A DNA stretch of 64,000 nucleotides from an uncultured Chloroflexia bacterium (GCA_963793875.1 CAWCBS010000014.1:90088-154087); one strand, 5' to 3'. Shown: positions 26,998 through 40,242, counted from the first letter of the stretch. Notes: generated by a model from the sequence alone, not told the origin. Numbers and translations are program-made.

Positions 26998-27359
26998 GCC
27001 CGCGGCCGTGGCTCCGCGCGGAGCGGCCGCGGTGGCGGCGGGTTGAGGATGCCGCGTCACCCAGCGACGAGCGTGCGCCGGCCCCGGTCGATGGCTCCTG
27101 GTCGCCCTGGCCTGGCCGGCGGCGATACTGGGCCGCTGCTTTCACGTGGCGCTGCAACCGCCGCCGTCCCCAACTTCACCCACCATCGGCTGGGGCCGGG
27201 TGCGGCGGCCGCGTCCGTGGCCCGGTACAATGGGTCACGGTCGCGCTAGACGGGGAGCCAGCGGTGCCCTGTACCCGCAATCCGCTATAGCGGGGTCGAA
27301 TTCCCCACCGAGGGGGCGCGTCGCCGGGTCCGCTCCGACCTCTCCGGTGTTGATGGTTG

Positions 27360-27464
27360 GGTCCTGCGCAGCCCGGGCCCGTGAACCGCGTCAGGTCCGG
27401 AAGGAAGCAGCGCTAAGCGGTCCCCCGGGGGTGCCGCAGTCAACCTGGCCTGAGCCGGGGGACC
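27360..27464 (+). ncRNA. ffs: Signal recognition particle RNA (small 4.5S-type)
   Basis: Exact match to the conserved helix-8 motif GUCAGGUCCGGAAGGAAGCAGC at 27391-27412. Terminal pairing ggtcc…ggacc. It lies upstream of dnaX-ybaB-recR, the usual neighbourhood. The ends are approximate. Confidence 0.7.
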
Positions 27465-27654
27465 GGGTGAGCGCCGGTGCCGTGCCAACGACGTGGGGTG
27501 CGCGACTACTCCCCCTCCCGGGGCGGTGGGAGGCCACCCCCGCGGGCGGCCACAACCGGGCACCTTCGACCCGGCCGATCCGCTCACCGGTGGTCGCGCG
27601 GTTGCCGCCGCCGCCTCCGCCCGGCCGCCCGCCCCGCCAGGACGGGCCGGCCGA

Positions 27655-31451: not shown

Positions 31452-31543
31452 CGCGAAGGCCCTGGGACCGGCGCTCTGCGCCGGATTCCACGCAGGCCTC
31501 GTCAACGTTCGAATTTGACCCGCGCAAGCGGGTGAGAACGTTT

Positions 31544-33049
<1,506 letters not shown>

Positions 33050-33601: not shown

Positions 33602-34379
33602 GGGATGAGCTGCGCTCCGCCTCCACTCTTGATTCTCGCGGCCGCACCAGCGGCGGCAACCCCGCTCCTTCATACGTGAATACAAGTCTGCGAATGATCT
33701 TCGTCACCGCCGTACTTCAGCGGTGGTGGCGAGACGGATCCTCTTTGTAATACATGTCAGGTGAACACAAACGCGCGCGACCCCGGCCCCAGGGCCGAGG
33801 TCGATCCCTTCCTCTCATCCCCGGCGTGGCCGTGGATGAGCGCTGAAAAGTGTGAATAGGAAGGTCAAGCTGATAAGGGCGCACGGTGGATGCCTTGGCA
33901 CCAAGGGCCGAAGAAGGACGTAGCGTTGCTGCGATAAGCCTCGGGTAGCTGCTAGCGAGCGTTAATCCGGGGATTTCCGAATGGGGCAACCCACCTGGAG
34001 TCATGTCCAGGTACTCCCGGTTGAATATATAGGCCGGGTAGAGGGCACGCGGAGAACTGAAACATCTAAGTATCCGCAGGAGAAGATAACATCCCCTTAG
34101 TAGTGGCGAGCGAAAAGGGGTGAGCCTAAACCGAGACGGCGTGATAGCCGGCAGGCGTTTCCGTCTCGGGGTCGTGGGACCCTCATGCTCCGCTGCCGTG
34201 GAGCGCAGGAGTTACCAAGTCGTCGCCTAGCTGAACAGTTTTGGAACAGCTGGCCGTAGAAGGTGAGAGCCCTGTACGCGAAAGGCGGACGACCTCCTGG
34301 AGGTGTTCCCAAGTACCACGGAACACGTGGAATTCTGTGGGAATCTGGGCGGACCATCGTCCAAGGCTAAATACCCTTG

Positions 34380-34421
<42 letters not shown>

Positions 34422-35051
34422 CACCCCGGAAGGGGAGTCAAAAGTCCCTGAAACCGTGCGCTTACAAGCCGTGAGAGGGCTATGCCCGTATGGGAATGCC
34501 TGATTGCGTGCCTTTTGTAGAATGAGCCGACGAGTTACTTCAGTGTGGCGAGGTTAAGGGGTAGACACCCGGAGCCGTAGCGAAAGCGAGTCTGAATAGG
34601 GCGTTGTCGCCGCAAGGCGATGGTAGTCGCACTGAGTAGACCCGAAACCGAGTGACCTATCCATGGTCAGGGTGAAGCGCGGGTAAAACCGCGTGGAAGC
34701 CCGAACCGACCCCAGTTGAAAATGCGGCGGATGAACTGTGGATAGCGGTGAAATGCCAATCGAACTCGGATATAGCTGGTTCTCCTCGAAATGCATTTAG
34801 GTGCAGCGTCGTCAACGGGTCTGTCGTAGGTAGAGCACTGAATGGGCTAGGGGCGATCACCTCGTTACCAAACCCAATCAAACTCCGAATGGCGGCAGAT
34901 TTTCTGGCGGCAGTGAGACAGTGGGGGCTAAGCTTCATTGTCGAAAGGGAAACAGCCCAGACCACCGGCTAAGGTCCCCAATCGCAAGCTAAGTGGTAAA
35001 GGATGTCACGATGTCCAGACAACCAGGATGTTGGCTTAGAAGCAGCCACCA

Positions 35052-35082
<31 letters not shown>

Positions 35083-35847
35083 ATGTCATGGCGCCGACAA
35101 TGATCGGGGCTCAAGCTTGCAACCGAAGCCGTGGATGACCCTCCTTCTGGGAGGGTCGTGGTAGAGGAGCGTTCTGTGGGCAGAGAAGCCCGACCGGAAG
35201 GACGGGTGGAGCGTACAGAAGTGAGAATGTCGGCACAAGTAGCGAGAAACGCGTGAGAAACGTGTTCGCCGTAAACCTAAGGTTTCCTGGGCAACGTTAC
35301 TCGTCCCAGGGTCAGTCGGGACCTAAGCCAAGGCCGAAAGGCGTAGGCGATGGACAGTTGGTCAACATTCCAACACCGCCAAAGACAATTCAAGGCGGCG
35401 GGGGACGGGGAAGGATAGGCCTTACGGAGCGATGGTTGACTCCGACGCAGCCAGGTAGGGGGTCGCCGATGAAAGTTGGCGGCAACTCCGAGACGGATGC
35501 CAAGGCACCTAGTGCTGATGGGGCCGATTCCATGCCTCCAAGAAAAGCCCGTACCGCTGGTCTAGGCGCCCGTACCGCAAACCGACACAGGTAGGTAGGA
35601 AGAGGATTCCAAGGCGATCGAGGGAAACGTGGCTAAGGAACTCGGCAAAATTTCCCCGTAACTTCGGGAGAAGGGGAGCCCTTGACGGTGATCGGCCTCG
35701 CGCCGTGAGCTGATGAGGGCCGCAGAGAAAAGGCCCATCCGACTGTTTACTAAAAACACAGGTCTCTGCTAAAGCGTAAGCTGATGTATAGGGGCTGACG
35801 CCTGCCCGGTGCCGGAAGGTTAAGTGGAGGGGTGCAAGCTCTGAAAT

Positions 35848-35891
<44 letters not shown>

Positions 35892-36601
35892 GGAATCGCT
35901 GCCTTAGTAAAATCTGGCTATATGCTGGAACACCCGTGGATCCCGCACTACTAGGCCGAACCGACGTTTGGTATAGTGACAATGTGACGGGTGCGGACAA
36001 TCAGCAGGAAAGGCTCATCGAGCTGGGTTGGGTACTCGGCTTTGTGGACGGAGAAGGTTGCTTCTCCCTCAGCCTGGTGCGGCAGGTAGGCCGCGCTGGG
36101 CGAGTAGGCTACAGGTCGGGGTACCAGATCTTTCATGAGTTCGCAGTGACGCAGGGCGAGAGGAGCATCACGTGCCTCTACCGACTTCGCGAATACTTCG
36201 GAGTCGGATCGGTGATTGTGAACCGACGGTATGACAACCATCGGGAGTGCGTTCATCGGTATGTGGTTCGGCGACGAGACGATCTGGAGGCGGTGATCAT
36301 TCCGTTCTTCAGGGAATACCCGTTGCGGACTGCGAGACGTGAGGACTTCGAGAAGTTCGCGACGTGCGTGGCGATGATGTCGTGTGGACACCACCGCACG
36401 CCGTCCGGATTTGGTGAAGTGATCGGCATTGCGGAGACGATGAACAGACGCAAACCTAGAACAACCATTGGTGAGAATCCTCAGAGGCCATACGCCAGAC
36501 ACCCGGACGGCCCGAGTGAAGATATGGTCCCGTCTGCATGGCGACATGCAGGAGAGGTGCCGGCTCACGGCACCTCCGCCTGGGATACCAGGTAAGAGCA
36601 G
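35892..36601 (+). mobile_element. Group I intron in 23S rRNA at position L1931 (E. coli numbering), 710 nt, encoding a LAGLIDADG homing endonuclease
   Basis: The upstream exon ends …CCUAAGGU and the downstream exon resumes AGCGAAAUUCC, so the exon is restored perfectly when the insert is removed. A 7-bp P1 forms between exon ccuaaggu and the intron internal guide sequence gccttag at 35901-35907, with a U·G pair at the splice site. The last intron nucleotide is G. A P-like element (attgcggaga), Q-like (aatcctcag), R-like (cagacac) and S-like (aagatatggtcc) occur in canonical order at 36427-36530. A P9-like 9-bp hairpin lies at 36556-36578. Confidence 0.75.
35936..36595 (+). CDS. Single-motif LAGLIDADG homing endonuclease (I-CeuI-like family) encoded inside the L1931 intron
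   Basis: LIELGWVLGFVDGEGCFSLSL is a LAGLIDADG motif. The downstream VIIPFFREYPL…DFEKF… segment resembles the I-CeuI family. The protein is 219 aa and the start codon is GTG. The region has 'ttt', 'att' and 'aga' codons and ~55% GC, unlike the host. The C-terminal ~55 codons overlap the intron core elements. Confidence 0.8.
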   Translation: MDPALLGRTDVWYSDNVTGADNQQERLIELGWVLGFVDGEGCFSLSLVRQVGRAGRVGYRSGYQIFHEFAVTQGERSITCLYRLREYFGVGSVIVNRRYDNHRECVHRYVVRRRDDLEAVIIPFFREYPLRTARREDFEKFATCVAMMSCGHHRTPSGFGEVIGIAETMNRRKPRTTIGENPQRPYARHPDGPSEDMVPSAWRHAGEVPAHGTSAWDTR

Positions 36602-36621
36602 AGCGAAATTCCTTGTCGGGT

Positions 36622-36870
36622 AAGTGAAACGAGCCCGTACCGGCTAATATCGGTGAAGCCCTACTGGTAGGCGTGCGGCCGCCAGGGGTGATACCGAGGG
36701 AAGTCACCTCCACTGAGGAGGTTGACCCTGTATCGACTGAGGCCCTAGTGCCAAGGGTTGGTGGAAGTGCGCAATCCGCGCACAATCTAGCCGCCAGCCA
36801 AGACGCCGGTGACTTCCGTGGCGGGAGTCAAAGTTATAGTCAGTGCTACCAGTGATGGTGGATAACCATG
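36622..36870 (+). mobile_element. ORF-less group I intron in 23S rRNA at position L1951 (E. coli numbering), 249 nt
   Basis: The exon reads …CUUGUCGGGU | intron | AAGUUCCGACC, and the exon is restored when the insert is removed. The internal guide sequence gcccg at intron positions 12-16 pairs with exon cgggu (U·G at the splice site). The intron ends in G. A P4/P6-like hairpin gtgcgcAATCCgcgcac contains a Q-like element. An R-like element is tcgactga and an S-like element is aagttatagtcagt. Confidence 0.75.
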
Positions 36871-37149
36871 AAGTTCCGACCCGCACGAATGGCGTAACGA
36901 GATGGGCGCTGTCTCGGCCACGTACTCGGCGAAACTGAAGTACCTGTGAAGATACAGGTTACCCGCAGCAGGACGGAAAGACCCCGTGGAGCTTTACTAC
37001 AACCTGCCACTGAGATGGGGTCTAGCATATAGAGGATAGCTGGGAGACGGTGAAGCGTGGTCGCTAGATTGCGTGGAGTCAACCTTGGAATACCAGCTTT
37101 GCTAGACTTTATTTCTAACCGGGACCGTGATCCGGTTTCGGGACCGTGG

Positions 37150-37182
<33 letters not shown>

Positions 37183-37340
37183 CAAAAGGTAACGGAGGCG
37201 CCCAAAGGTTCCCTCAGCCTGGATGGAAATCAGGCCTAGAGAGTGTAATGGCACAAGGGAGCTTGACTGTGAGGCCTACAAGCCGAGCAGGGACGAAAGT
37301 CGGGCATAGTGATCCGACGGCTCTGAATGGAAAGGCCGTC

Positions 37341-37377
<37 letters not shown>

Positions 37378-37407
37378 GATCTTGCCCAAGAGTTCACATC
37401 GACGGCA

Positions 37408-37449
<42 letters not shown>

Positions 37450-37455
37450 GAGTAT

Positions 37456-37490
<35 letters not shown>

Positions 37491-37966
37491 TACGCGAGCT
37501 GGGTTTAGAACGTCGTGAGACAGTTCGGATCGTATCCGCTGTGGGCGCAGGAGATTTGAGGGGAGCTGACCTTAGTACGAGAGGACCGGGTTGGACGGAC
37601 CGCTGGTGCACCGGTTGTTCTGCCAAGAGCACCGCCGGGTAGCTATGTCCGGATGGGATAAGCGCTGAAAGCATCTAAGTGCGAAGCCCACCCCAAGATA
37701 AGATCTCCCACCGGATTAACCGGGTAAGACCCCAGCAAGACTAGCTGGTTGATAGGCCGCAGGTGTAAGGGGGGCAACCCCTTGAGCTGAGCGGTACTAA
37801 TCGGTCGAGGGCTTGACCTTTCTATCCCACACTCTTCAGCGCAGTGCAGGGCGGCGACCCGCGGGTCGCCGGCGCGATCGTTGTTCGCCCGACATGAAGT
37901 GGGTCCGGAGCCGCGCGTGGCTCTCAGACGCAGACTTGGTTCCTTCTTACGAAAGAAAGGAGATAT

Positions 37967-38082
37967 TCGGTGACCATAGCGGTGGGGAGACACCTGTTCC
38001 CATCCCGAACACAGCAGTTAAGCCCACCAGCGCCGATGGTACTGCCCTGGCAACGGGGTGGGAGAGTAGGTCGTTGCCGAGT
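37967..38082 (+). rRNA. rrf: 5S ribosomal RNA
   Basis: …CCCGAACACAGCAGTTAAGCCCACCAGCGCCGATGGTACTG…GGGAGAGTAGGTCGTTGCC. Length ~116 nt, located 146 nt downstream of 23S. Confidence 0.85.
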
Positions 38083-40155: not shown

Positions 40156-40242
40156 GCCGAGGTGGTGGAATAGGTAGACACGCTAGCTTGAGGGGCTAGT
40201 GAGCGCAAGCTCGTAGGGGTTCGAGTCCCCTCCTCGGCACCA
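40156..40242 (+). tRNA. tRNA-Leu (GAG) with a long variable arm; CCA encoded
   Basis: Acceptor gccgagg / cctcggc. Anticodon stem ctagc / gctag with loop tTGAGGg. 16-nt variable arm. The sequence ends …GGCACCA. Confidence 0.85.

Follow-up and report, generated by a model that had tools for sequence, protein, structure and literature searches.

A P2-less, endonuclease-less intron, very probably group I of subgroup IA type, at position 1951 of a bacterial 23S rRNA gene

Introduction

What interrupts the 23S rRNA gene considered here, and can it be a group I intron if the standard Rfam model passes over it? The gene is 3958 nt long, about 1 kb in excess of the 2925 positions of its Rfam model. 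It lies in a 64,000-nt stretch of DNA from an uncultured bacterium (the window, from whose first letter all positions are counted). Comparison with the E. coli sequence reveals two insertions that break helices 69-71. The second, 249 nt long, follows U1951, in the helix 71 loop at the subunit interface. A first-pass annotation of the sequence had proposed that it is a second, ORF-less group I intron.

A covariation-backed fold from P1 to P9, a family of introns at the same site, and a covariance model specific to that family all uphold this proposal. The segment at 36622-36870 is very probably a group I intron of subgroup IA type, likely IA3, inserted after U1951 in the helix 71 loop. It is an ordinary copy of a family widespread in soil bacteria. 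What is new is a P2-less, endonuclease-less L1951 intron of this subgroup in a phylum without rRNA introns in the literature searched.

The host gene and its junctions

The window contains a single rRNA operon: 16S (31543-33049), two tRNAs, 23S (33863-37820) and 5S (37966-38082). The 16S, 23S and 5S genes score normally against their Rfam models. Elsewhere, a large bacterial SRP RNA (178.5 bits) is encoded at 27241-27505, some 4 kb upstream of the operon, and there is an additional tRNA at 40156-40239. The parts of the interrupted gene are as follows.

33863-37820, + strand: 23S rRNA gene hosting both insertions (Rfam LSU_rRNA_bacteria, 2629.5 bits, model 1-2925)
35892-36601, + strand: upstream insert at L1931, 710 nt (junctions from sequence)
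36602-36621, + strand: exon between the introns, 20 nt, AGCGAAAUUCCUUGUCGGGU, E. coli 1932-1951 (sequence and E. coli comparison)
36617-36621, + strand: CGGGU, last 5 nt of the 20-nt exon and exon strand of P1 of the second intron
36622-36870, + strand: whole element at L1951, 249 nt, very probable group I intron (junctions, profile match, fold, covariance model)

The exon 5' of the first insert ends in ...CCUAAGGU, with its last base at 35891; that 3' of the 249-nt insert begins AAGUUCCGACC.... When both inserts are excised in silico, 220 nt around the site align to E. coli 23S as one BLAST piece, and the E. coli-like GUCGGGUAAGUUCCGAC is given back. In an E. coli copy of 2903 nt the junctions are at 1930 and 1950, and so at 1931 and 1951 in conventional 2904-nt numbering. 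The 20-nt exon claimed between the introns can be read directly from the junctions. Because AAGU is present at both ends of the insert, the boundary can be slid by 0-4 nt, giving five possible registers. Only in the register chosen in the first-pass annotation does the exon end in U at the 5' splice site and the intron end in G.

Without the two inserts the 23S sequence comes to 2999 nt and, aligned to E. coli, contains no further large insertions except about 80 nt near the 5' end. These extra nucleotides (window ~34170-34250), in domain I around spliced position 310, may represent an expansion or else an intervening sequence.

A complete group I fold

The conserved order P3-P4-P5-P6-P7-P3'-P8-P7', with its P3/P7 pseudoknot, is present in the insert. 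The fold was drawn manually and evaluated with two alignments. The several-phyla set comprises 21 ORF-less L1951 introns. The close-relative set comprises 30 Dormibacteria-type copies: 28 distinct ORF-less metagenome copies, the window copy, and the copy from a Dormibacteria genome (L002). The 28 distinct sequences derive from 35 ORF-less copies, 223-259 nt, on independent contigs. Intron position n corresponds to window position 36621 + n.

36633-36637, + strand: guide GCCCG (intron G12-G16), forming P1 with exon CGGGU; U.G at the 5' splice site
36628-36630, + strand: possible P10, intron AAC with exon GUU; weak, 3 bp after two mismatches
36639-36644, + strand: P3 5' strand, ACCGGC (intron 18-23); partner 36805-36810; recovered by RNAalifold
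intron 24-28, + strand: J3/4, UAAUA
36650-36697, + strand: P4-P5-P5a domain; 97.6% paired (several phyla), 95.9% (close relatives)
36650-36655/36692-36697, + strand: P4 (intron 29-34/71-76)
intron 35-36, + strand: J4/5, AA
36658-36661/36686-36689, + strand: P5 (intron 37-40/65-68)
36664-36672/36678-36685, + strand: P5a (intron 43-51/57-64)
intron 69-70, + strand: J5/4, GA
36698-36729, + strand: P6 (36698-36700/36727-36729) and P6a hairpin (intron 77-108); 99.4% paired, 4 pairs doubly changed (close relatives)
36735-36739, + strand: P7 5' strand, GACUG (intron 114-118); partner 36837-36841; P3/P7 pseudoknot
36741-36752, + strand: P7.1 hairpin, GGC-CCUAGU-GCC (intron 120-131); 100% paired (close relatives)
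36756-36799, + strand: P7.2 (intron 135-178); outer helix, apical hairpin and internal loop
36767-36783, + strand: P7.2 apical hairpin, loop AAUCC
36805-36810, + strand: P3 3' strand, GCCGGU (intron 184-189)
36811-36829, + strand: P8 hairpin, 3-nt loop (intron 190-208); 93.8% paired, 6 of 7 pairs doubly changed (close relatives)
36830-36841, + strand: J8/7 AAAGUUA (intron 209-215) and P7 3' strand UAGUC (intron 216-220); AUAGUC invariant across phyla
36843-36869, + strand: P9.0, 36843-36845 with 36867-36869 (intron 222-224/246-248), enclosing P9
36846-36861, + strand: P9 hairpin, GUGA tetraloop (intron 225-240)
36870, + strand: terminal guanosine omegaG (intron 249), before exon AAGUUCC; same in all aligned introns

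Most sequence elements picked out by the first-pass annotation find a place in this fold: the guide pairing with exon CGGGU; the R-like GACUG, which is the 5' strand of P7; the S-like AAAGUUAUAGUC (36830-36841), which is J8/7 together with the P7 3' strand; and the terminal G. The exception is the Q-like AAUCCGCGC (~36773-36781), which lies 3' of the R element and belongs to the apical loop and stem of P7.2 rather than to P4'. The true P4' is UACCGA, at 36692-36697.

Several elements hardly vary. The GCCC of the guide is unchanging across the 21 introns of several phyla, and P7 GACU/AGUC, J8/7 AAAGUUA, J4/5 AA and J5/4 GA are invariant or nearly so. The P7 sequence presumably matches that of Tetrahymena P7, and its pair G36735-C36841 is presumed to bind guanosine. 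P2 is lacking in the window intron. One candidate for it, ACCG/CGGU, was rejected, the same bases making P3 and P4, with covariation. Likewise rejected was an outer P7 pair, C113-G222: RNAalifold shows G222 co-varying with U248 as the third P9.0 pair (GC 8, AU 7, GU 6).

An endonuclease gene is also absent: the only ORF, of 60 aa at 36673-36855, matches nothing in Pfam, and the P8 loop is 3 nt.

Does the fold hold in other copies?

When the 3' partners in the several-phyla set are slid by 1-3 columns as a control, 37-45% of cells pair, versus 86.9% in the proposed register; the covariation score is 0.281 versus at most 0.086, and 23 pairs are doubly changed. P3 pairs in 100% of the sequences across phyla, with GC/CG/AU exchange; P4 and P5 show AU/UA and UA/CG/GC/AU exchanges; P9.0 and P9 are 100% paired, with UA/CG, GC/CG and GC/AU/GU exchanges. 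RNAalifold, blind to the manual drawing, recovered P2 (absent from the window copy), P3, P4, P5, P5a, P6, P8, P9.0 and P9, in agreement with the nested helices of the manual fold.

The close-relative set gives 91.3% pairing versus 31-41% in register-shifted controls, with 32 pairs changed on both sides. None of 500 shuffles equals the observed value by any of five measures. Most of the covariation signal comes from the peripheral helices, such as the 9-bp outer helix of P7.2 (36756-36764/36791-36799; 98.5% paired, 7 of 9 pairs doubly changed). P7 and the greater part of P3, P4 and P5 are constant here, and so are supported by conservation rather than covariation; P7, although 100% paired, gives no covariation evidence. 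Pairing is low for the inner P7.2 hairpin (43%) and the P8 tip (29%) in the MAFFT alignments. This is misalignment, because every sequence alone folds into a hairpin there. The insert itself has a minimum free energy z-score of -3.3.

Two further features may concern tertiary structure. P7.2 holds a conserved internal loop of AAUCUA type (AAUCUA or AAAUCUA) on its 3' side (36784-36790), kept while the surrounding helices vary. It occurs in Dormibacteria- and Actinomycetota-type copies (from Dormibacteria, Actinomycetota, Acidobacteriota and Gemmatimonadota) and is missing from Gammaproteobacteria-type copies. Its conservation suggests a tertiary contact.

The GUGA tetraloop of L9 (36852-36855) accompanies CU:AG at the base of P5a (36664-36665/36684-36685) in 9 of 10 GUGA sequences; GUAA copies have CG there instead. 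GNRA loops recognize helix receptors by a rule that covers the L9-P5 contact. The GUGA/CU:AG pattern fits this rule and may reflect such a contact, a signal confounded by shared ancestry.

A blind spot in the standard model

Recognition by RF00028 was the check proposed with the first-pass annotation, and failure by the covariance model was to count against an intron. RF00028 found no match to the 249-nt insert in the whole window, in 35850-36950 or in 36610-36885, even at E<=10 on this last, 276-nt stretch; for that model, the adverse outcome is the one obtained. The sole Rfam match listed in the 276-nt stretch, sR43, is noise (10.1 bits, E=3.3).

This failure is a false negative, a gap in sensitivity rather than a refutation, because at its gathering score RF00028 likewise overlooks the L1951 intron of each of the eight related loci examined, endonuclease-bearing copies included. 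The only intron that it detects in those eight loci is a different one, at L1917 in L029. The gathering score is a detection criterion, not a structural definition. RF00028 assigned only 45% of the 23S insertions in CPR bacteria to group I (PMC11270868).

Models built from the family itself behave differently. When 19 introns of other phyla, none of them from Dormibacteria, are made into an nhmmer profile, its sole match in the 64 kb is at 36638-36870 (E = 2e-20). A covariance model, R1, was made from ten introns of Actinomycetota, Acidobacteriota and Gemmatimonadota, covering P3 to omegaG, with P1 and P2 trimmed from the training alignment and the structure taken from RNAalifold. An alignment mixing Gammaproteobacteria and Actinomycetota types misaligned P3' and was not used for the model. 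R1 has one match in the 64 kb, at 36637-36870 (126.9 bits, E = 3e-44), spanning model positions 1-255 of 255 and ending exactly at the terminal G36870. Thus, the insert is recognized by a covariance model if the model represents its subgroup.

A family at L1951

The 3' junction expected at L1951 (G followed by the exon from position 1952) was used as the query in a scan of one genome per bacterial or archaeal species. The first-pass annotation had recommended looking for this intron in other genomes of the lineage; in the wider scan, L1951 introns occur in at least 120 species-level genomes from many phyla. Hosts among the matches listed include Thermoleophilia/Solirubrobacterales, Acidimicrobiia, Dormibacteraeota, Gammaproteobacteria, Gemmatimonadota, Acidobacteriota, Omnitrophota, Peribacteria and other CPR groups.

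Insert lengths among these listed matches are bimodal, at ~230-400 nt and ~620-870 nt. About two-thirds of the listed species-genome copies fall in the longer class, mostly through a LAGLIDADG gene in P8. The J6/7-P7, J7.2/3-P3' and J8/7-P7' anchors occur in order in 67 of 103 L1951 introns among the matches listed, and the stretch from P7 to P3', though quite different in sequence, folds into two hairpins in essentially all 67 members. The family members, in metagenome-assembled genomes (loci L001-L174), share with the window intron its site, core and P7.1/P7.2 architecture. In CPR bacteria, L1951 is held also by two unrelated ribozyme types (e.g. L007 and L096; L068 and L071).

The window copy is not near the minimum size, as had been claimed. 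Copies in the same family measure 223-247 nt, and an unrelated L1951 intron 227 nt. Smaller self-splicing introns are known, such as that of Azoarcus (~205 nt).

The closest relatives among the matches listed are all in Dormibacteria genomes (L098, L029, L018, L002 and L114). The window 16S and spliced 23S sequences are 92-100% identical to the closest loci, with L029 further away (23S 83.6%, 16S 89.7%), and ~80% identical to those of other phyla. On these identities, the host lineage is almost certainly Candidatus Dormibacteraeota.

The Dormibacteria type differs from the others in its guide region, with GAGCCCG in place of UUGCCC, and in having no P2, whereas most family members outside Dormibacteria contain a P2 hairpin. 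A LAGLIDADG gene of ~470 nt occupies the P8 loop of the L1951 intron in L029, L018 and L080 (Pfam 1.1e-26); such a gene within an intron is a signature of mobile group I introns. Judged by its sequence, the window copy is a stripped-down and presumably immobile form, without P2 and without the LAGLIDADG gene that relatives carry in P8.

Individual loci show a range of intron states. Over 680 nt, the 23S exons of L098 (1-1452; Ca. Dormibacteria SPRUCE 306, at a contig end) are 100% identical to those in the window. An L1931 intron is nevertheless missing from this locus, and its L1951 intron is only 85.5% identical to the window copy. That intron carries a LAGLIDADG ORF whose stop codon spans the junction, and is without the P8 3' strand, J8/7, the P7 3' strand and P9. 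Either the intron of a near-identical rRNA gene has decayed in L098, or the locus is misassembled. In L018 (508-1199), the LAGLIDADG gene is frameshifted, its motif region and C-terminal part being in different frames, as if the endonuclease gene were decaying within a ribozyme intact in other respects.

Introns of R1 type occur also at other 23S sites: after ~U2473 in Dormibacteria L018 (1722-2026) and L029 (5313-5571), and as two extra copies in an Eremiobacteraeota MAG, L036 (5125-5385 and 5540-5786). These score 100-155 bits with R1. L029 additionally has a 696-nt insert at L2604 (5703-6398) and the RF00028-positive L1917 intron, making four introns in one gene. The window contains only one R1-type copy.

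Two introns around a 20-nt exon

The upstream insert at L1931 encodes a LAGLIDADG_1 ORF (35936-36595, Pfam 9.7e-17) and scores 24.1 bits with RF00028, under the threshold of 50. Its exon sequence UAAGGU is able to pair with intron GCCUUA, by manual reading. The ORF overlaps the 3' ribozyme core, whose R-like CAGAGGCCAUACG and S-like GAAGAUAUGGUC, around 36480-36535, it includes.

When metagenomes were scanned for a 26-nt core found only in the Dormibacteria type, 54 contigs matched. About 26 of them carry the L1931 intron, the same 20-nt exon and the L1951 intron; in about 12, an L1917 intron precedes L1951 across a 34-nt exon, as in Coxiella; and about 15 have nothing upstream of the L1951 intron. 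The nearest copies, 90-91% identical to the window intron, include four with an L1931 partner (L127, L148, L160 and L171) and one without (L140). The L1931-L1951 pair is therefore real and recurrent, but not obligatory. Literature searches turned up neither such a pair nor rRNA introns in Dormibacteria.

The likeness to the twin introns of Coxiella burnetii noted in the first-pass annotation, with a different first site, stands; the arrangement is not singular, being identical on about 26 of the 54 contigs. Coxiella contains L1917 (IB2) and L1951 (IA3) introns with a 34-nt exon between them (PMC10136302). Both pairs consist of group I introns around a very short exon in helices 69-71 (PMC10136302), differing in the partner: L1917 and a 34-nt exon in Coxiella, L1931 and a 20-nt exon in the window. 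The Coxiella Cbu.L1951 intron shares its site after U1951 and its subgroup, IA, with the window intron (PMC10136302; PMC1995217). However, it is 720 nt long and encodes a 157-aa LAGLIDADG protein (PMC1995217), whereas the window copy, at 249 nt, lacks both an ORF and P2; the comparison is one of sites and published descriptions. The title of Raghavan et al. 2007, cited in PMC11270868, calls the Coxiella L1951 intron self-splicing.

Closely spaced introns are known from other bacteria. Synechococcus sp. C9 has introns at L1917, L1931 and L2593 (PMC1995217), and CPR bacteria have 23S insertions at 1917, 1931, 1952, 2593 and 2604 (PMC11270868). Together with Thermotoga (L1917, L1931, L2593), these organisms share with the window the occurrence of 23S group I introns at the same few conserved sites, frequently with more than one in a gene and little distance between them (PMC1995217, PMC11270868). 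The introns described are all endonuclease-bearing and come from cyanobacteria, Thermotogae or CPR, whereas the window copy is without an endonuclease gene.

The hallmark of subgroup IA is a pair of hairpins lying between P7 and P3' (PMC3984707; PMC1995217). The window intron is assigned to this subgroup because P7.1 and P7.2 are present and paired in its predicted fold and P7.2 co-varies. The IA2 introns of phages (T4 td, Twort orf142) also have P7.1 and P7.2 between P7 and P3', where they wrap the guanosine-binding pocket (PMC1995217), and Twort too has tandem introns, around a 23-nt exon (PMC10136302). These belong to another subgroup and interrupt protein-coding phage genes; they are likened to the window intron by architecture. 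Within subgroup IA, the window intron is most likely IA3, a label that rests on the site it has in common with the IA3 intron of Coxiella (PMC10136302).

Other explanations

Might the insert have a group I sequence and fold and yet no longer be spliced, being retained in the mature 23S rRNA, as at Simkania L1931, or lying in a dead rRNA copy? P10 is weak, and P2 and the endonuclease gene have been lost. Moreover, decayed copies may exist in the lineage, as the L1951 intron of L098, without its 3' core in a near-identical rRNA gene, illustrates. At least one bacterial 23S intron, Simkania L1931, was reported unspliced (title of Everett et al. 1999, cited in PMC11270868). However, all core helices and junctions of the window copy are intact, and the 35 ORF-less copies (28 distinct) keep their pairing by compensatory changes, which implies that the fold is still under selection. 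The loop of helix 71 would not easily take up a structured insert of 249 nt, and the operon looks intact otherwise, with normal 16S, 23S and 5S scores. Loss of splicing is accordingly judged improbable.

Excision by an RNase III-type activity, which removes an intervening sequence without exon ligation and leaves fragmented 23S rRNA, is very unlikely. Such intervening sequences are common in bacterial 23S genes (PMC11270868), and the insert does lie in a hairpin loop, but this processing needs a long stem formed from both ends; the minimum-free-energy fold provides about four scattered end pairs. Instead, the insert has a full-length match to a group I family model, and the fragmentation sites 23IS2 and 23IS4 differ from group I sites (PMC11270868). 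Equally hard to credit is an assembly error, a chimeric join of rRNA reads from different organisms that would create a pair found in no genome. rRNA operons are hard to assemble from metagenomes, and L098 combines the same exons with other intron content; yet the junctions are base-exact and the same arrangement recurs on about 26 independent contigs, including those of the four 90-91% identical copies with an L1931 partner.

A model for splicing

For the group I intron favored here, the observed boundaries, fold, covariation, family membership and recurrent arrangement permit a model in which catalysis and the order of events follow the established group I pathway. In the precursor rRNA, guide GCCCG would pair with exon CGGGU, so that the 5' splice site is marked by a U.G pair. 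With P7.1 and P7.2 as braces, the P4-P6 and P3-P8 domains would form the catalytic core around the P3/P7 pseudoknot. Free guanosine in P7 would attack the 5' splice site; P9.0 would put the terminal G36870 into the same pocket; and the freed exon 3'-OH would attack the 3' splice site, joining U1951 to A1952 and restoring helix 71.

The L1931 and L1951 introns plausibly act independently, because their contacts use different ends of the 20-nt exon: P1 of the L1951 intron would take only the last 5 nt, and the 3' exon contacts of the L1931 intron would take the first few. As the first-pass annotation supposed, it is reasonable to think that ribosome assembly in this organism depends on two ribozymes.

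Implications

A more speculative idea, and a long shot, is that the two ribozymes around the 20-nt exon jointly provide a brake or checkpoint for 50S assembly in soil bacteria that grow slowly. They might do so through splicing that responds to temperature or Mg2+; through the 20-nt exon being skipped now and then, yielding dead 23S rRNA; or through binding of the excised introns to ribosomes, as proposed for Coxiella. If the idea were true, the recurrence of the pair on about 26 contigs, and an immobile ribozyme kept under purifying selection, would signify host benefit, not mere persistence.

Understanding of how group I introns work is unchanged by these results. The points of wider use are the blindness of RF00028 to the whole L1951 family and the breadth of that family in soil bacteria. 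Because this class of introns is invisible to the standard Rfam model, annotations overstate the length of 23S genes in Dormibacteria and many other soil lineages by about 250-1000 nt. Such introns also interrupt primer and probe sites around helices 69-71. The P2-less form of ~250 nt is a compact natural subgroup IA ribozyme and a possible experimental model. Group I introns in bacterial 23S genes have long been called rare; at least 120 species-level genomes contain them at L1951 alone, and the coexistence of endonuclease-bearing and stripped forms is as expected from cycles of invasion and decay.
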